DNA of 63,266 nt, counting the filler. It is 12 parts of 12 records of this genome, joined end to end, with 100 filler letters (N's around TTAATTAATTAA, not from the genome) between each part and the next. Parts side by side here need not be neighbours in the genome. Positions count along the whole stretch, not along the records: positions 19,610 to 25,895 come from SRR15195285_4191; 11 more parts are not named here. One strand, given 5' to 3'. Each line of letters starts with the position of its first letter. The first letter of the stretch is position 1. The position numbers and the translations under genes were made by a program. Below the pieces are notes generated by a model. The model worked only from the letters and a program-made list of their open reading frames with translations, was not told the DNA's origin and ran no database searches. Below are positions 3,773 to 57,677 of this stretch, in pieces.

Positions 3773-3872
3773 NNNNNNNNNNNNNNNNNNNNNNNNNNNN
3801 NNNNNNNNNNNNNNNNTTAATTAATTAANNNNNNNNNNNNNNNNNNNNNNNNNNNNNNNNNNNNNNNNNNNN
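3773..3872. other. Artificial contig linker
   Basis: 44 N + TTAATTAATTAA (stop in all six frames) + 44 N. Confidence 0.99.
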
Positions 3873-7676: not shown

Positions 7677-7776
7677 NNNNNNNNNNNNNNNNNNNNNNNN
7701 NNNNNNNNNNNNNNNNNNNNTTAATTAATTAANNNNNNNNNNNNNNNNNNNNNNNNNNNNNNNNNNNNNNNNNNNN
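7677..7776. other. Artificial contig linker
   Basis: N44-TTAATTAATTAA-N44. Confidence 0.99.
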
Positions 7777-11265: not shown

Positions 11266-14200
11266 ATGCAGGAACGCTCAGCTCCACTCGTGGCCGGCAT
11301 CGTGCTCGTCATGCTCGTGGGTCTTGTCGCCTCATCCGAGGTGGCGGTGGAGCCATCGGCTTCGCTGCTCGTTACGCCGAGCTGGGCAGCGGCGGAGCTC
11401 GCGACGAATATCACCGTGACCGGGCAGTTCGATGTGACGCCTGGCGCCCCGGCGCGGCTGCGCATCAAGTCCATCGATAACAACTTCGTCGATGCGGCCT
11501 ACAGCGCCACAGGTTATGACTGCATGGGAAACCTGTCAGCTACGATCCTCAACAGCACCGCCGTGGCAGCCACTACTGTGCCGACACAAAACTCGGCGCC
11601 AGCCACCGTGACTCTCTCGTTTGACGGCGGCGAAACGTTCGGCAACGCTACGGGAACGTTCCGCGTCGCGCCACTGCTGGAGGTCGCCGTTGGAAGACGT
11701 CCCTACACGTCTGAGACGCACGGTACCCTCGTGTTGCGAGCAGCTGGGCCACCGCTTCTCGCTCCAGGCACGCGGCTCCGCGTCGTGGCATCGTTGCCAG
11801 CGTCGGTGTACGCGTCTGTGCTGGTGTCTGGAGTCCTGGCCGCCGGAGTGACCGAATTCTTCCATTTCGAGCTCGGGGCTCTTCCACCGACGATCTTTTC
11901 CACGCTAACAGTCCGTGCGACCATAATTGAACCTTCTGGTGGCACCAGCGCAGCGTTGGTGCCGAACGGTACTGAGGTCGTGCACAAGCGAGTGTTTCAC
12001 CGCGCTCCACCCCCACGCAATCCGAACGTGACTGTTGCAGTTGTTGATCACACGCGCCGCTCCATCATGCTCGGGCGTGGAGGCGACACGCCGGAGGCAC
12101 CCTGGCTACCGTTTCTTCTTGCTGGCTTTTTCAACTCGGCTTTCACCTATCAGTCTGAAGGCGATGATGGCGCAGGCCTGCCGTGGTCCGTCGCTCCAGA
12201 ACAGATCGATCCTCTACTGATAAGTGGAAGCCACAAAGCAAACGAGTGGGGACGAAAGGGCAGCAATGTCATGACCATGTCGCATCTCAAGCGTCCGGAA
12301 GTGCTACTTGCAGATATGGATACTGCATACGCCGCCGGTGTCTACGTTGTGCTCTTCATCCCTACCTCTGGGCATTGCAACGACACGCACCGCCAACAGT
12401 CGTGTGCACAAGACATTGATTACATGCGTGGCAATGTCAGTCTGGTTATGGACCATCCAGGGCTCATCGGATACTACATCTGCGACGACTGTTGCCAGGG
12501 ACAAGAATACCTGCTCGAGCTGGCGGAGGTGTATCGAGAACTCAAGCAGCTCGACCCTTATCATTTTACCACAGGAGCTTTGGAGTGTGACGAGATGCAC
12601 GCGTTTGTTGAGCCACACTTGAGTTTGGACGCTCCGATGAGAGAAAATTACCGACCAGACTTGGCATTTCACTCGAGCGATGGTGTGCATGGGCGCGGGG
12701 GCGATGGTGCAGATGGCACGGGTTCTGACGGTTCCATGCGGATGCCACCTATGTCCTTCGTCCCTATGATCAACCTCCCAGACGCAGTGCGGCAGCCAAG
12801 GTCGGTTTGCTGACTAGCATTTGTGCAATCTGCCTTCCTTCGTTTCATCTTGTTTTCCTGCACAAACATCAAGTGTGCAGCTGTATGCTCGCATACCGTT
12901 CCCTGATGGATTCTTGCCATGTGTGCGGTAGGGCGAAGTTTGCGCAGACGGCGGCGTGGTTGAGCGTTATTACAGCAGTGAGTTTCTGTGCCTTCAGAGT
13001 TTGAGCTATCTGTGCGTTCAAATCTTCGCCGACCTCCTGACCGTTGCCGACCGTTGCAGGATATGGCACATCAGATCTGGTGTGAGTTGGTGCAGCTACA
13101 GCTCTCCTGCTGTTGACTGCCATCATCTCCTCTCCTTTTCCTTTGCAAACATCGATTTGATTCCTTTGCAAACATCGATTGTTCTGATCATGTTCGTGGC
13201 AGACGTGTACAATCACATCATGTACGCGCGATGGGTGCTAGAAGATGCGATTACGGCTCTCAATGCACAGCTTCTAGAGTTGGCGCCTTCTTTGCTAGGG
13301 ACGGTCGACACAGTGCAGCCAACCGTAACTGTGCTAGGTGCACCAGCAACCTTTCTCCGAGCACGGGCGTGGCGCGACAAGGCATTTGAAGCCCAGGCAG
13401 CGCAGCGTGGGAACGTGAAGCAAACATCGAGTAGTCTGTGCGTGCACGTGGTGCTGGCGTCAATTGCTGTATCAATGCCACCGAGCCCTTTTGAGCTCGA
13501 ACTTCGAGGACTATGTGCTGGTAGTAACACCAGCAAGATTGATGCGATATTGCCTCTCTGTCCGAATGATATCAACGCGACGCACCAGTTCTATGATGAT
13601 TACTCGGTGCCCTTGGAATCGCGCTCGCAGCATGTGAGAGCTGTCGGCAGTGGATCAGGTCAGGCTACAGTAGTCCACACGCTGCGTGACGTCATTGCTT
13701 CAGGTGGCACGTCTGTCTGGACGATCGGATGCGACGGATGGGACGAAACCCTGAATCTCGCCAATCTAGTCAACGACCCAGGCTTCGAGGCGTCAGAGCT
13801 CCCTCTGACACCCGGTTTCGTGTCCTGCCATGAGGAGGCAGAGTACCCTGCGGGCACGTTCAAAGGCAAGTGCAAGCTAGAGGATAAGCATGCAGGTAGC
13901 TGGGGTTTGACGCAGGCGGCGGATTTGAAGGATGGTCGTGCTTCATTCTTTGCCGACTCTGTTCTTCCACACTCTGGACGAAAGAGCGGGCGAGTATGGC
14001 TGCCCTCTGCCACCCCATTGGTGTTCGGCATGCCTGGGTACACTACCAATCTCAACGGTGTTAACGTGGCGAATTCGACCAGCTATAAAATCTCGCTCTG
14101 GGCCAGAAGCTTCCCGTCCAGGATGACAATAGTCGTCAGTGCAGGCTCACGACAGACAATACCGCTCACGCCGAAATCGCCGCTCGGGCTTGATTCAGTG

Positions 14201-14782: not shown

Positions 14783-14882
14783 NNNNNNNNNNNNNNNNNN
14801 NNNNNNNNNNNNNNNNNNNNNNNNNNTTAATTAATTAANNNNNNNNNNNNNNNNNNNNNNNNNNNNNNNNNNNNNNNNNNNN
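14783..14882. other. Artificial contig linker
   Basis: N44-TTAATTAATTAA-N44. Confidence 0.99.
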
Positions 14883-19509: not shown

Positions 19510-19609
19510 NNNNNNNNNNNNNNNNNNNNNNNNNNNNNNNNNNNNNNNNNNNNTTAATTAATTAANNNNNNNNNNNNNNNNNNNNNNNNNNNNNNNNNNN
19601 NNNNNNNNN
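19510..19609. other. Artificial contig linker
   Basis: N44-TTAATTAATTAA-N44. Confidence 0.99.
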
Positions 19610-19856
19610 CACTGATGCAGTCTCATCGACACCGCCAGGACGCACGCGTGTTATTTGGAAACCGCGGCGCCGCGGACGAGGCTACAGTATGTAATATAAG
19701 GGCCCCGCCGCGCGGTCCGTAGCTATTAGCGCGCGGCAACGAACGAACGGTTGCTGATCAAGAACGAAGCATCACTATCTCTAGCGACCGCCGCTGGCGC
19801 GCATCGAGCAGGGCGCGTCGCCGGGCGCCATCGCTGGCGAAATTGGTACGCACTGG

Positions 19857-22800
19857 ATGGCCCGAACCGGTCTCTCGCTGGCGACGCTGGCGAGCGCGGG
19901 ACTGGCCCTGCAAGCAAGCGCGATTTCGTCGGACGACGAAGCTTCGGTCCAGGCGTTGGCGGCCACGTCTGCACCGCCAGTGTTCTTCAGCGTGCGCGTG
20001 GATCGGCACACAATCGGGCTCGGGCGGGTTGTCAACGTGACCATCGATCCCTCGGGTTTCGCTCCAACAGGCAATGGCACGACGTTCTGGCCTTTCGTCA
20101 ATGGCTCCCAGTACGGCAGCTTCGTGACCTGCGCCGTCGCTGGCCGCAGTCCGGTGGTGGATGGTGGTTGCTCGATTTTGCTGCCCTTGGCGGTGGTCGG
20201 GAGCTCAGACATCAAGGTCGCGGTGCTGCGTGATGGTCGTACTTGGGGTGGTGAAATCAACACAACTGCGGCCGGGTGCCAACGCGTAGGTTGTCCTCCA
20301 TGCGACCAAGCAAAAGGGTGTGTGTATCCAGTGGGCACTCCGTTTCCTGCCGCGACAGAAGTGTTGTCAAGCAGCCCTTCAGTCAGTGTCGAGGTGCTGT
20401 ATCGCAAGATCCAACTACCAGCAGGCACGCGCTCGCCCCAAGGACGGCACCATGAAGTCTGCATGGACTGGGAGCCGTGGCACACGCGTCTGAACACTGG
20501 TCGGTGGATTGGTCGGCCGGGCGCGTCAGCAATGCCACTCGTGGGCATGTACAGTTCGTACAACACTGACGTCATCAGGCAGCATGCGATCTGGTTGATC
20601 GAAGCAGGTGTGACCTGCATTGAGATTGACTGGTCAAACTCGCTCTGGGGGCACCAAAAATGGGCACAGCGTGGGACTGGGGCGCAAGATCTCAACAATG
20701 CCACCGTTCTCGCGCTGCAGGTCTACGCCGAGATGAGAAAAGAAGGTCATGATGTTCCTAAGGCCTTGTTCATGATTGGTCTGCAGAACGGCCCTCCAGC
20801 AACACCAAGTGAGGTTGGGAATGAGGCGGCGTGGATTCGTGACAATCTTATCAGTCCTCTCGGTCCGGATCAGTTTGTGCAGTTGGATTCCAAGCCGCTG
20901 CTGCTAGTGTTGTACTGTGGAAACAATGCTGTCCCAAATGCTTCAGTCACCCATGCTGTCTCCGCGGGAGGCGACTTTACAGTGCGGTGGATGGCAACAC
21001 AATTGCAGGAAAACCCCGATCTGTGCGCTTCTTTGCCTCTTTACCTTTTGCGCTGCTTTAGACATGATATCTAACGAGTTTTCACTGTTGTGCTGGGTCG
21101 ATGTCGCCCCAATACAGTGGACTGAAGCATGGCTTTTGGAGCTGGATGGATGGCTCGATCGAGCCTGTTCCTACGCTGCGATCCGATGGTTCAGTCGAGG
21201 CACTGACAGTCACCCCCGCGTTTTTCGCAGGAGGTGGCTGGCTGGCTCCCGCGGCTAGGGCCCAAGATCGCGGTGCGACACTGACGGCAGAGATGTCCGT
21301 AGCAGTCAAGTATCGCCCGACCATTCTTCTCGTCTGCCAATGGAATGAGTGGGCTGGGCAGCCAGACGGTAAAGTATGTATGGCATTGCCTCTAAGTTGA
21401 GGGATGATTGCTGCTGCACCCAAAGTCACTGGCATGCCTCACACATTGTCCTGACTCATTTTGTGTGTATATCGGTTGGAGCAGGTCGGTGGTTTTGTCG
21501 ATGCATACAATCTTTCGTTCACAAATGATCTCGAGCCGACTGCGCTGGCAGAGTGTGGAGGTTACCAGCACGCTAGTGACGCCGGACAGTTGCCTGTTTG
21601 TGACACTGCTTGGGGGTTCTTCAATTTGAACTTGCTTCGTGCGACGCTACAGGCCTACCGAGACTCATTGCAAGAGCACGTGGCGAAACCAACCACTGTA
21701 CTCCGAATCTCGTACCCGACGGCACCACCGACGACTATTTCGGCACCACCTGTCATACACGAGACGGCGCTTCGTGTTGAGTGGGCTACTGTCGGGCCTG
21801 GAGAGAGGTTTCAGATCACGGTTGATACTGACCTGCTGACCATGGTCGTCACCAATACGACCTCTGTTACACTGGACCTCGATAAGATACCCGATGGTCG
21901 TCACACTGTGGTCGTGACTGCTGTAGATGGCAAGTCTATGTTTCCATTGGCGCGCGATTCTCTGGACCTTACGGCCACAACAGATGCGCCATATGTGGCT
22001 GCATACGATAGCGTGATGTTCGAGTTGCGGAAACCATCGGCAAGTTCGCAGACCGTATTGTCTGCAGTGGTGGGGTTTGTCAATCAGCCAGATCAGCTAT
22101 CCTATGAGTACGGCCCAACCATCATCCAGGAGAATGGAACCTTTTACAACATATTTTGCTCTCCTGGTGGATTCGTGCCGCCGGGAAACGACAAAGTTAA
22201 GGCGTGGGACGTGATTCGGATGACCACGTCGACTGATGGCCGCAACTGGTCAGAACCATCAGTCGTCCTCGAGCCCTCGACAACGTGGGATCGCTCGTCG
22301 GTTTGCGACCCATCAGTTGTGAAATTCAGAGGGACGTACTTTCTATACCACACTTGCATAAACACGTGCACTGACGAGCGAGCCCCAAAGGACGGTTACT
22401 TTCAGAACCGCATCTGCGTCGCTCTTGCAGACAACATCACTGGGCCTTTTCGAAAGATTGGCAAACCGGTCATTGAGGACCTGACCTGTGCACCAGGAAG
22501 TCACAACACGACTTGCGCGAAAGAGATCGGAGGATATTGTGTAGGCCAGCCATCTGCTACTGTCATAGACGATGCTGTTGTAGTATTCTACAGTTCCATT
22601 GGGTGCGCCTCTGACTCACTCACAGCATGTTCATGTCTGCTATAATCGCGTCTCACATGCTTCGATTGTGTTGTGTTGTGCTGGCGCGCAGTGGAGCAAA
22701 TGACAACACAGAAGGGCCCAACCCGGGCAGGATTCTGGCCATGACAAGCAGCGATGGCGTGCACTTCGTGCCACGCGATCGGCGAGATGTTTCTATGGTG

Positions 22801-23612
22801 ACTCTAGATGGAACATCACCGCCTGCGAAGTCCGAGACGCTGTTCACCCAGCGGGACGTCGATATTCGGTACGACCGTGTGAACAAGCAGCTGCTAATGT
22901 TGCAAGGTGATGTTGGCGCAAATCAGATCTTCTGGAGCCTCTCCGACGATCTGGGTGCGCCTCTGACTCACTCGCATCATTTTCATGTCCAAGTGTTTTC
23001 GTCTCACATGCTGCGATTGCGTTTCAGGGTTGACGTGGCTTCCCTGGGCGGACACTCGCACTATCGCTGTCCACAACGTCAGCGCGTGCAAGACTTGCAA
23101 TAATCACAACCCCGGTCTAGCAGCGCTGTCCGATGGATCCTTTGGTGGTCAGACATTCGCTTTGGTTGCTTCGTCATTTGAGAACCCTGGGAAGTGGGGT
23201 CAATGGCACCTGTTCCGCACCGATGTCGGGGTGACAGCGCAAGGGCTTGGGTGCAGTATGTGTGCTCCGGTACGATACATACTCCACATCAGTCTCAGCT
23301 GCAGCGTGTATTTCGCATGTAAAATTAAGCTTGCGGGATGGTGGGTTCAATGCTGCACAGGCTGGGTGCGATCATGCCTGCAGTCGTGGTGGGAAGACGA
23401 TGAGGGGCAAGTGCGCTGATCCCAAATCGGTCGATCATGGAAAGTGCTGCGAATGCGAAGAGTACGTCGACGATCTGCCGTGCGCTCGATGTGCGGCGTC
23501 TGCGGGCGGTTGCGTGGAATTGTGCCGTAGAGCTTCAACGAACTACACGGCTGGGATGTGTGCATATGGCGACAACTCTGCGAAAGGTCTATGCTGCACG
23601 TGTTTTGAGTAG
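19857..23612 (+). CDS. Secreted bi-catalytic CAZyme: GH99/GH71-like domain + Ig-like linker + GH43-like beta-propeller + Cys-rich tail (about 6 exons)
   Basis: PLVGMYSSYNTDVIRQHAIWLIEAGV..IDWSN and QWNEW..DLEP; then YGPTII, STDGRNWS, VCDPSVVKFRGTYFLYHT, GPFRK, GQPSA. Introns include 21023-21117, 22603-22691 and 22955-23027. Confidence 0.78.
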
Positions 23613-23879
23613 AGCGTAGCACTAGCGACCAATGGAGCCAACAGACTCGTGGAGCATGCATATCGACCTTGTGAACAAGCGCCTTTTCCTTTCCTTTTTA
23701 CCCTGAGCCCCACAAAAGGTTCGCTAGTTCAACCCATCTCTCTCTAGACACTCGCAAGCCCGGCCCTCCTGCCTTCGGTCGCAGCCCCGAAAGGCTCGGG
23801 CTGGCATCCAGACGGAATTCAACAATGAGCTCATTGCGCTTGGGTCTCAGCCCCGAAAAATCACGTTAAGCGCGAGCCG

Positions 23880-25830
23880 CTAAGCGAAGGTTGTCGGAGT
23901 CAAAAGCAACATCTGGTGCCCACCCTCTGGAGCTAGATCCTTCGCCACAAGCTCGGTGAGCTTCGCTTCCGTCGAAATGTCTTTGTGGAGCCAAAGATCA
24001 CGCACTGTCACGGACTTGCCTGCAAGCCCAGTTCGTTCGATACAATCGCTGCCGCACGTGACGTTCGGCGCAGTGTCCGTGCCCACGTTGATGAAGACCA
24101 TGGCGACCTTGCCACCACTCAGCTTGCGCGACCAGATGTTGGTTGACGAAGGTGGGGCCTGTTCTGTGCCAGCGGAGACACACAGCTTGCCATCCACGCT
24201 ACCATGGTGGATCAATCCCGTGGCCTCGTCAAAGTAGAAGGCCGAAGACGGGTCTTCAATTTGCTCAACCAACGATGGGCACGCCGCAAGCTCGAGCTGG
24301 GCCCCGACGGTGTCTGGAGCAACAACGCACTGCCCATTCTTGATTTCTGGATCAGTCAACGCCGAGACCAGCTGGTGCTGCGCGTTTGGCCGAAAGTAGA
24401 ACCCTTGGTTGGTACTGCACCCGTTGGTCACCCACTGCCACGTGACGAGTTTGTCGCCACAATCCAAAGAGTCCCACGCAGTCTTCAGCGTTGGCGAGTA
24501 GATCGTGCCCGCTGGCGTCGGCGTCGTCCCCCCGCCCATCGCCCACTTCTGATGGGTGTCTTTCGTGTCACACGTCGCGAGGACGATCGGTGTCCCATCC
24601 TGCACACCTCCAGCGCCACCATCTGGAGAAGCAGCGAGGTTCCCACCGACAATCCGCTCGCCCTGCATTCCGAGCACATCCTGTCCCAAGCACAGCGAGG
24701 TGTTTTAGCTCCGGAGCGCGTTCTAGCGCGTCCTCAGAACAGGAGTGAGGACAGTGGAACGCTTGGAGCGTTATCGCGATACAGGGAAAGAGGGAGACAT
24801 GGAAAGGGGGGCAATAGAAGGGGAAAGAGGGCCAGCGTGCAGTGTGGTTGCGCTATACCTGGTCCACTGCGATCACCTCTGTATTGGTGTAAGTTTCGAT
24901 GTTCATCGACGACATGTTTCGGATATTTGCGGAGATGATCAGTGGCGACGCCATGATGGCCCACATACTGAACTGCGCCCGGCTTTGAAGCTGGGTGACA
25001 CGCAGGTTACCGTTCAGATCTTCAGCTAGAAGAAGGCACGGGTCGTTCCATCCCTTGTCTGGGCCCGCGTTCGCGGCTAGCTGGCTGTTGATGTTGATGT
25101 TGGCGAGCACCCCGGGCCAGTTCGTGTCGTCAGGGCCGATGCGCCACAGGTTCGCCAGCTCTTTGCCGCCTGCATAGTTCAGCGCAGGATCAGGGTTCGA
25201 GTACCAAGGGTTCCAGCCGCACAGCGAGAAGACGATCGGGCGACCGGTTGCGTTGAGCGCGTCCCGCATACGGCCATACTCTGCAAAGGCCTCTTTGTGG
25301 TCTTGCGAGGCCGTGCAGCTGTCTTCCTTTAGGAAATCTGCGCAAACAGAGCGCGCGCGCAGTGTTAGCTCGAAGCCACGTGGCGTCTCGTTTATACAGC
25401 TCTAGAACGTGAGCTAGAGCTGAGAGCGGGCCGAAGGCTGCAGCTAGTACCTGCACCCCAGGCTGCGAAAGAGTTGGCGTCTTTTGTAGTGTGGTTGTAA
25501 CTGCCCGGGCCGGGGCCGCATTGCTTGGTGCCCCGGTCGCTGTACACGCCACATTGCAGTGGCTTGCCGTTGGGGAGCGTCTTCGAGTGGACGTAGTCAC
25601 ACATGGGCTTGAGGCTCTTGCTGGGGAACTTGTTCGGGTCTGCGTAGATCGAGCCATTTGGATAGCGCCCACCGCTCCACAGGTCGTCCAGGTTCCAGTA
25701 ATTGTAGCCGTACTTGGGCAGATCCAGGTCCATGAATGCGTCGACCGTTTTGAGCAGCAGGGCTTCGTCAAACGTGCCCGTGACGTCGTACCAGGTGTTG
25801 TAGCCCATCGGGGGCGTGCGTGCCAGCCCT
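23880..25830 (-). CDS. GH27 alpha-galactosidase with ricin-B-like lectin inserted before the C-terminal beta-sandwich (5' truncated, spliced)
   Basis: LARTPPMGYNTW, YWNLDDLW, FLKEDSC, MRDALNATGRPIVFSLC, NLWRIGPD, WNDPCLL, QFSMWAIMASPLII. Ricin-like C..QKW repeats, then WSRKLSGGKVAMVFIN...VRDLW. Confidence 0.93.
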
Positions 25831-25895: not shown

Positions 25896-25995
25896 NNNNN
25901 NNNNNNNNNNNNNNNNNNNNNNNNNNNNNNNNNNNNNNNTTAATTAATTAANNNNNNNNNNNNNNNNNNNNNNNNNNNNNNNNNNNNNNNNNNNN
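25896..25995. other. Artificial contig linker
   Basis: N44-TTAATTAATTAA-N44. Confidence 0.99.
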
Positions 25996-26147: not shown

Positions 26148-26196
26148 CATCCACACCTTCGTGTCGAAGACGGTCGTCGACACGAAGGTGTGGATG
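26148..26196. repeat. Perfect 20-bp inverted repeat with 9-nt spacer
   Basis: CATCCACACCTTCGTGTCGA (26148-26167) / TCGACACGAAGGTGTGGATG (26177-26196). Confidence 0.95.
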
Positions 26197-29883: not shown

Positions 29884-29983
29884 NNNNNNNNNNNNNNNNN
29901 NNNNNNNNNNNNNNNNNNNNNNNNNNNTTAATTAATTAANNNNNNNNNNNNNNNNNNNNNNNNNNNNNNNNNNNNNNNNNNNN
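29884..29983. other. Artificial contig linker
   Basis: N44-TTAATTAATTAA-N44. Confidence 0.99.
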
Positions 29984-33430: not shown

Positions 33431-33530
33431 NNNNNNNNNNNNNNNNNNNNNNNNNNNNNNNNNNNNNNNNNNNNTTAATTAATTAANNNNNNNNNNNNNN
33501 NNNNNNNNNNNNNNNNNNNNNNNNNNNNNN
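33431..33530. other. Artificial contig linker
   Basis: N44-TTAATTAATTAA-N44. Confidence 0.99.
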
Positions 33531-40656: not shown

Positions 40657-40756
40657 NNNNNNNNNNNNNNNNNNNNNNNNNNNNNNNNNNNNNNNNNNNN
40701 TTAATTAATTAANNNNNNNNNNNNNNNNNNNNNNNNNNNNNNNNNNNNNNNNNNNN
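40657..40756. other. Artificial contig linker
   Basis: N44-TTAATTAATTAA-N44. Confidence 0.99.
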
Positions 40757-44313: not shown

Positions 44314-44347
44314 TGACATAGGGCATAAGGCCTTGTGCCCTATGTCA
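44314..44347. repeat. 34-bp near-perfect palindrome with TGACA/TGTCA ends
   Basis: TGACATAGGGCATAAGG|CCTTGTGCCCTATGTCA, with one G:T mismatch. Confidence 0.93.
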
Positions 44348-44972: not shown

Positions 44973-45072
44973 NNNNNNNNNNNNNNNNNNNNNNNNNNNN
45001 NNNNNNNNNNNNNNNNTTAATTAATTAANNNNNNNNNNNNNNNNNNNNNNNNNNNNNNNNNNNNNNNNNNNN
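44973..45072. other. Artificial contig linker
   Basis: N44-TTAATTAATTAA-N44. Confidence 0.99.
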
Positions 45073-53440: not shown

Positions 53441-53540
53441 NNNNNNNNNNNNNNNNNNNNNNNNNNNNNNNNNNNNNNNNNNNNTTAATTAATTAANNNN
53501 NNNNNNNNNNNNNNNNNNNNNNNNNNNNNNNNNNNNNNNN
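53441..53540. other. Artificial contig linker
   Basis: N44-TTAATTAATTAA-N44. Confidence 0.99.
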
Positions 53541-57577: not shown

Positions 57578-57677
57578 NNNNNNNNNNNNNNNNNNNNNNN
57601 NNNNNNNNNNNNNNNNNNNNNTTAATTAATTAANNNNNNNNNNNNNNNNNNNNNNNNNNNNNNNNNNNNNNNNNNNN
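57578..57677. other. Artificial contig linker
   Basis: N44-TTAATTAATTAA-N44. Confidence 0.99.

Follow-up and report, generated by a model that had tools for sequence, protein, structure and literature searches.

We analysed a window of 63,266 bases of DNA (the whole stretch under study) from an uncultured marine eukaryote, an intron-poor protist with many glycosidase genes. One gene on the + strand of this window (approximately positions 19857–23612) carries two neighbouring introns of related sequence, intron A (22603–22691) and intron B (22955–23027). The pair is probably a same-gene, non-segmental intron duplication, and relatives of the gene retain states with neither intron, with A only and with both.

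The gene is read as six exons and five interruptions, all on the + strand, and its predicted product is a secreted-looking glycosidase in which a weak GH99-like region, a propeller of GH43-like type and a cysteine-rich tail can be recognised. Exon 1 (19857–21022), with a putative ATG at 19857, lies in an open frame spanning 19785–21074 and encodes a signal-peptide-like start followed by the GH99-like region; its Pfam GH99 match is weak (E-value (E) 0.0048, under the curated cut-off), and it aligns with the N-terminal half of the homologue P0006. Intron i1 (21023–21117; 95 nucleotides (nt), phase 2) runs from GTGCGCTTCT to CAG and is followed by TGGA, at a site across which the homologue P0004 is contiguous. 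Exon 2 (21118–21373), in the frame of an open reading frame (ORF) at 21068–21400, is colinear with P0004 and P0006 and is separated from exon 3 by intron i2 (21374–21484; 111 nt, phase 0, GTATGT...CAG), for which an alternative acceptor 3 nt upstream (21481) fits the frame equally well. Exon 3 (21485–22602; ORF 21455–22645) encodes a linker and the beginning of the GH43-like beta-propeller (Pfam GH43, E 1.2e-07, 31.8 bits where the cut-off is 32.2) and ends at intron A (89 nt, phase 2, GTGCGCC...GCGCAG), which is presumably the source. Exon 4 (22692–22954; frame of ORF 22615–23103) forms the 263 nt between the two copies, and intron B (73 nt, phase 1, GTGCGCC...TTTCAG), presumably derived from A, leads into exon 5 (23028–23269; frame of ORF 22967–23419). 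Intron i5 (23270–23360; 91 nt, phase 0, GTACGA...CACAG), which is read through in the relative P0156/P0161, precedes exon 6 (23361–23612; ORF 23235–23612), which encodes the cysteine-rich C-terminal domain, ends with a TAG stop codon and matches residues 981–1056 of P0006. The only named homologue of the gene is a choanoflagellate transcript, 40% identical.

Both A and B are bounded by GT and AG. Retention of A would place a stop codon at 22643–22645, and retention of B, at 73 nt, would shift the frame. An exhaustive protein search with exon 3 returned 488 homologues at E <= 0.001, and the other exons were aligned against the best 150. Exons 3, 4, 5 and 6 correspond to residues 1–127, 129–224, 228–307 and 308–391 of P0009, with split codons alone between them. 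Exon 4 also aligns to 17 more homologues; among the best 150 of the 488, the translations of exons 4, 5 and 6 keep their order and leave no gap at any junction, and P0006 and P0008 align likewise. P0009 is a single ORF of 979 residues (longest contig 5.5 kb), so this relative is uninterrupted at the A and B sites. Because the predicted spliced product is colinear with intron-free relatives, A behaves as a phase-2 and B as a phase-1 intron, and by homology both behave as spliceosomal (U2-type GT–AG) introns. An earlier reading of this DNA from its letters (hereafter the sequence-only reading) had placed the two introns in these phases and at non-homologous coding sites, and the reading frames and the sequence bear this out.

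The resemblance between A and B is concentrated in two blocks. Positions 22600–22637 and 22952–22989 form a 38-nt match of 92% that opens with 22 identical nt (the exonic TGG followed by GTGCGCCTCTGACTCACTC, 19 intron bases), and positions 22649–22672 and 23000–23023 form a 24-nt match, also of 92%; the spacings of the matching blocks are 352 and 351 bases. Coordinates and shared strings are thus as first described, with the identical start extending to 22 nt when TGG is included. Each block occurs exactly twice in the window when three mismatches are allowed, against chance expectations of 0.04 and 0.03, and two copies appeared in 0 of 100 shuffles. In blastn, A and B align over 74 columns at 82.4% identity, with E approximately 1e-13 for a short query and 8e-10 in the window self-comparison. 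Their local alignment score of 74, compared with a shuffle mean of 16.2 (standard deviation 2.6), was matched by none of 500 shuffles, which upholds the proposal that the two introns are homologous. The remaining nine pairs among the gene's five introns have local scores of 11–22, those of i2 and i5 with A and B being at shuffle level. In a self-comparison of the whole window (E <= 1e-4), A and B form the sole repeat that links two different places; the only other self-matches are two local palindromes, at 26148–26196 (49 nt, 94%) and 44314–44347 (34 nt, 94%).

Shared splicing signals, an extended donor and a branch-point region, could in principle produce likeness of this kind independently of common descent. 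Splice signals tend to be long and strict in eukaryotes with few introns. Intron i1 likewise begins GTGCGC, the 3′ block contains a branch-point-like CTCAC located 21 nt (B) or 36 nt (A) before the acceptor, and the same blocks are retained in the copies of relatives. The likeness nevertheless extends over nearly all of B, spacer included, and neither the 0 of 500 shuffles nor the other intron pairs, none of which rises above shuffle level after correction, agree with a signal common to the gene's introns. In the five other introns available, two of them from a neighbouring alpha-galactosidase gene, the bases before the donor are TCT, AAA, CCG, CAG and CAG and the donors are GTGCGC, GTATGT, GTACGA, GTACTA and GTATAG, the last four belonging to introns that have neither block. 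A TGG before the donor is not the usual exon end in this organism. Since these exon ends and donors differ, the likeness of A and B is not the splice consensus of the species, and we regard shared signals as a most improbable explanation.

The copied unit corresponds to the intron itself. The similarity begins at TGG and the GT that follows it, and both copies end in CAG; beyond this the exon flanks are unrelated, with only scattered matches downstream, and the flanking peptides differ (VVFYSSIG/GANDN at A and FWSLSDDLG/LTWLP at B, the slash marking the intron). The sequence-only reading had named ordinary tandem duplication, with the flanking exons duplicated too, as the outcome that would contradict intron copying; the flanks have TGG alone in common upstream, and the exons are not duplicated. 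With exon flanks unrelated except for TGG, the pair is not a segmental duplication, and neither alignment nor window self-comparison found an exon–intron or exon–exon repeat at the locus.

Residue counts across the two sites are identical in relatives that lack the intron concerned (P0155, P0161 and P0163): at site A, SSIGGVND in P0155 corresponds to SSIG/GAND in the window, and at site B, SDDAGLSW in P0161 corresponds to SDDLG/LTW. At neither site do the intron-free relatives have fewer residues than the window, so there is no target-site duplication (TSD). No terminal inverted repeats (TIRs) common to A and B were found, A alone pairing GUGCGCC with GGCGCGC at its ends. Folding is ordinary and no better than that of shuffled sequence, with z-scores of −0.87 (A) and +0.98 (B) inside the range of i1, i2 and i5, and the lengths of 89 and 73 nt, against 91–111 nt for those three introns, are ordinary and not longer. 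A and B differ in length by approximately 16 nt just before the acceptor, beside a GTGTT tandem in A, and this difference is an ordinary later insertion or deletion.

The duplication is not an assembly artefact. Of 23 public runs listed, 19 contain part of the stretch and 6 are RNA; four were examined (X10, X15, X1 and X2), two of them metatranscriptomes. A single DNA contig of the seawater run X1 covers 22560–23222, including both copies, with three differences from the window, and the read-through of A and B recurs, at 100% and 99%, in two independently assembled ORFs, P0162 and P0151.

Gene callers unaware of introns read through them, so protein collections contain translated intron pieces of relatives. 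Presence and absence in relatives, which the sequence-only reading had proposed as a check, could be scored in such read-through ORFs, where the states neither, A only and A plus B are all seen. P0152 (79/87 exon-4 residues identical to the window, 91%) has both introns, its B being 72 nt long, in frame and stop-free; a retained B in P0152 would add 24 residues and not break the protein. P0153 (65/83) and P0154 (54/71, 76%) were scored for B alone and have it. P0001/P0159, compared over exon 3 only (142/150), was scored for A alone and has it. P0161/P0156 (67/84) has A and i5, with an uninterrupted B site, and both A and B are absent from P0155/P0160 (60/84), P0163 (53/86) and P0009 (47/86). 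The assignment of A to P0161 comes from the eight residues preceding exon 4, which back-translate to the 3′ tail of A at 15 of 17 determined bases. At determined bases, copies of A agree with that of the window at 33/42 in P0152 and 15/21 in P0001 (5′ part only), and copies of B at 36/43 in P0152, 35/38 in P0153 and 33/37 in P0154 (the last two gapped). P0001, a GH43-like read-through ORF, is named ‘plastocyanin’ in one source; the name does not suit an ORF with a Pfam GH43 match and is apparently an annotation error.

These states revise the proposed age of the event. The gain had been taken as recent, but A and B stand at the same sites with the same blocks in P0152, and B is found also in P0153 and P0154. 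The copying is old, being common to several diverged relatives, and not recent at strain level. One relative with A and without B, together with others lacking both, favours B as the copy of A, and the comparison suggests that A most likely came first, with B copied from it later. The order of gains is based on parsimony together with an approximately unbiased (AU) test, in which a clade of the rows with B plus P0001 (scored for A alone) is not rejected, with p-AU 0.26.

The same comparison bears on the two routes that the sequence-only reading had offered, local copying or intragenic intron conversion. Copying is strengthened by the A-only relative, and conversion becomes the less likely of the two in view of the uninterrupted B sites. 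Under conversion, B would have been an unrelated intron later overwritten by A through ectopic gene conversion, with continuing conversion keeping both alike. At 352 bases the introns are within feasible range; one site reads CGATTG in both window copies and CGG.TG in both P0152 copies; and the identity between paralogous copies (82%) is close to that between orthologues at determined bases (33/42 for A, 36/43 for B). A single parallel site is, however, about what chance would give (approximately 0.3 expected over approximately 45 comparable sites, an estimate and not a computed value), and the converted tract would need to stop exactly at both splice sites. Conversion also needs a prior unrelated intron at site B, where P0161, P0155, P0163 and P0009 are all uninterrupted. 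We consider it very unlikely.

A stronger competitor to copying within the gene is that A and B are independent insertions of a dispersed, low-copy introner or introner-like family with other members outside the window. The host is marine, and in the available sections of PMC9860276 introner families are recorded in 17.0% of aquatic versus 2.6% of non-aquatic species. A TGG upstream of both copies is what a target preference would yield, and the search for members reached just 63 kb of the genome. Lineage-specific interruptions elsewhere in relatives (P0158, P0155 and P0163) suggest active intron gain. Such interruptions at other positions of the host gene are seen in P0158, P0155/P0160, P0163 and P0007: exon 4 of P0158 is interrupted by an in-frame insert of 25 residues, beginning with V-R-Y and finishing with L-L-Q, and P0155, P0163 and P0007 have non-homologous ends adjoining conserved exon sequence. 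Intron positions in this lineage seem to turn over fast.

Against an introner family stands the placing of the copies: the two are separated by 352 bases, the rest of the window has no other, and a family so rare as to escape notice would seldom strike one gene twice. The pair further lacks TSDs and TIRs, and resembles the other introns of the gene in length and folding. The absence of a third copy from the window, already remarked in the sequence-only reading, is corroborated by mismatch scans, blastn and the self-comparison of these 12 unlinked contigs, and no further copy of A or B was found among approximately 28 same-strand ORF junctions, picked by a crude heuristic in approximately 62 kb of unlinked pieces. 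Nor did 5.8 billion predicted proteins yield a further read-through copy in a search that is insensitive. On balance an introner family is unlikely, although it is the alternative to be taken most seriously. The missing third copy had also been read as a hint of a short-range mechanism; because the window consists of short unlinked contigs, it says little on that point.

Several candidate copies were examined and set aside. A partial third copy at 13616–13639 (− strand; 24 nt, 87.5%, E 0.013) has just a short CTCACATGCTGCGA-like string in common with the pair. Four metagenome loci from JGI, found by a scan with the 19-mer, belong to one unrelated gene that shares 19–21 bases by chance and are uninformative on copy number. 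A degenerate pattern of the 3′ block gave no hits in prokaryote genomes or viral contigs, and the 19-mer none in viral contigs, collections in which a eukaryote is not expected.

Within the gene itself, intron i1 agrees with A and B at 9 of its first 10 bases, has TGTTGTGCTGG in common with A, and like A is in phase 2 and followed by TGGA. Seven of 500 shuffles scored as high as i1 does against A in local alignment, a figure uncorrected for the ten pairs and obtained with a slice one base short, and i1 may be a third, much-decayed relative of A. The assemblies of X10, X1 and X2 have two extra G after position 21049, inside i1, relative to the window; whether it reflects a difference between strains or an assembly error of 2 bases, the change is harmless in an intron.

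Taken together, we favour the reading that B is a whole-intron copy of A made inside the same gene, by whichever route, and assign it a probability of about 60%. The direction from A to B, a single gain and the mechanism are what we infer from the patterns described above. The whole of intron A, from GT to AG, would have been placed by copying at a second position, 263 coding bases further downstream and likewise preceded by the exon bases TGG, with no exon duplicated and no residue added; small later changes, mainly the approximately 16-nt length difference before the acceptor, would then have separated the copies.

Two routes could lead to this outcome. In cis transposition, the excised RNA of A would reverse-splice into its own transcript, the product would be reverse-transcribed, and the cDNA would recombine in part with the gene. 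This route gives exact intron ends with no further assumption; we rank it first, and hold it only tentatively when it is taken by itself. In a DNA route, a close second, a break at site B would be repaired by copying the intron approximately 350 bases upstream, with the TGG microhomology priming the synthesis; this route needs selection to account for the exact ends. A bolder and rather doubtful extension is that one intron lineage spread stepwise along its own gene by cis reverse splicing, perhaps as i1, then A, then B. If so, the stages (no copy, A only, A plus B) would still be preserved in uncultured marine relatives, the blocks common to all copies (the 17–19-nt start and the CGTCTCACATG block) would confer competence to re-insert, and the locus would offer a natural system, tractable by sequence, in which to test spliceosomal intron transposition.

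Several observations weigh against copying within the gene or against its details. The data do not separate the RNA from the DNA route, and A and B differ by approximately 16 nt on the acceptor side. Copy number was scored only in 63 kb of 12 unlinked contigs. The protein search with the read-through of B, run against 5.8 billion predicted proteins (longer proteins, E <= 10), returned one hit of two candidates, from the window's own organism, and no other read-through copy of B, in a search that also missed the known relative P0153. The public DNA scans returned not even the window's own locus and are therefore uninformative on copy number. In the protein tree of 17 rows, 0 of 14 inner branches are well supported among the close relatives; P0161 may have lost B, or P0155 both introns, in place of gains in the other lineages, and some of the relatives may be paralogues and not orthologues.

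The RNA libraries add to these points. Their contigs are unspliced, at depths of 2–8, across B (X15, 22930–23209; X10, 22757–23025) and, in X10, across i1 and i2 (20706–21533) and i5 (23047–23700); such contigs may represent DNA carry-over or pre-mRNA. No splice junction was found in the contigs (not reads) of the two metatranscriptome runs, A lying outside the pieces listed. Two joints in X1, 20485–20884 and 22432–23549, were considered as splicing and rejected, having ends other than GT/AG and short sides of 29 and 21; they were taken as related sequence.

The origin of new spliceosomal introns is still debated, and most recognisable cases are high-copy, transposon-like introners. To our knowledge, clean examples of one ordinary intron being copied to another site, free of both exon duplication and transposon hallmarks, are few, and spliceosomal intron transposition, although long proposed, has as far as we know little direct evidence.

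The kind of event seen here is known but rare: non-segmental same-gene intron duplication has been described in fungi, and the locus does not represent a new system. The available sections of Collemare et al. 2013 (PMC3609843) describe same-gene duplications (SGD) of near-identical introns, recognised by BlastN and lacking counterparts in unrelated genes, 82 introns in 24 fungi, half of them segmental with duplicated exons, and report that SGD introns are like ordinary introns in length and folding energy. The pair described here resembles the non-segmental cases in that similar introns of ordinary length and folding lie in one gene whose exons are not duplicated. It differs from what those sections describe in its marine protist host, in being 82% alike and not near-identical, and in being conserved across several diverged relatives; relatives with neither, one or both introns are visible here, and confinement to one gene holds within 63 kb only.

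Other known systems share some of these features. Intron transposition by reverse splicing has been inferred in Mycosphaerella and Oikopleura (PMC3443670, PMC4122922 and PMC3514964, in the portions available), and the review among them (PMC3443670) explicitly allows insertion into the intron's own mRNA. As in those accounts, a whole intron with its own splice signals stands at a formerly intron-free site with no TSD; in Mycosphaerella, by contrast, the similar introns are in unrelated genes according to the passages available, and here no trace of an RNA intermediate or of a reverse transcriptase is demonstrable. Introners, as characterized in the available text of Gozashti et al. 2022 (PMC9860276), come in families, of which that screen kept those with four introns or more, and often carry TSDs or TIRs, and fungal introner-like elements (ILEs) are, in the corresponding sections of PMC3609843, longer and stably folded. 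A and B share with introners that they are recognisable by mutual sequence similarity, and that introners are commoner in aquatic organisms (PMC9860276); they differ from introners and ILEs, so described, in being two copies in one gene (63 kb seen), with no TSD or TIR and with neither greater length nor stabler folding. Finally, introns can be created through tandem or segmental genomic duplication of an exon segment containing AGGT, as outlined in part of PMC3443670. There, too, a local, short-range duplication yields a new intron inside a gene, but the mechanism outlined turns duplicated exon into intron or duplicates exon and intron jointly, whereas here 263 coding bases separate two copies whose flanks are unrelated.

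The locus therefore adds a marine-protist case, in which related environmental sequences unusually retain the states that preceded, separated and followed the two gains. Its main value lies in this preserved series of states, which would make the direction and the mechanism of copying testable given nucleotide sequences of the relatives and a full genome.

The window as a whole is eukaryotic and heterotroph-like in gene content. The window is made up of 12 separate contigs of 3–8 kb strung together via 11 linkers (N44-TTAATTAATTAA-N44), located at 3773–3872, 7677–7776, 14783–14882, 19510–19609, 25896–25995, 29884–29983, 33431–33530, 40657–40756, 44973–45072, 53441–53540 and 57578–57677. The intron pair is on the contig at 19610–25895, and contigs on either side of a linker are not physically linked. 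Among the genes of the window are a polycystin-like channel (with EF-hand and WW domains), a calpain, an ankyrin–bromodomain giant and two ABCD transporters, alongside many glycosidases: a rhamnosidase, GH2, GxGYxYP and an alpha-galactosidase. Uninterrupted ORFs of up to 1,665 residues mark the organism as intron-poor, and a search of the window for Rfam families gave none.

Downstream of the host gene, a convergent alpha-galactosidase gene (23883–25828, − strand) is predicted to encode Melibiase_2 and Melibiase_C domains. Its two introns have the donors GTACTA and GTATAG and CTAAC-like branch sites near their acceptors. Between the stop codons of the two convergent genes, a 20-nt motif occurs twice, at 23773–23792 (CTTCGGTCGCAGCCCCGAAA) and 23839–23858 (CTTGGGTCTCAGCCCCGAAA); the two occurrences are 90% alike and 66 nt apart.

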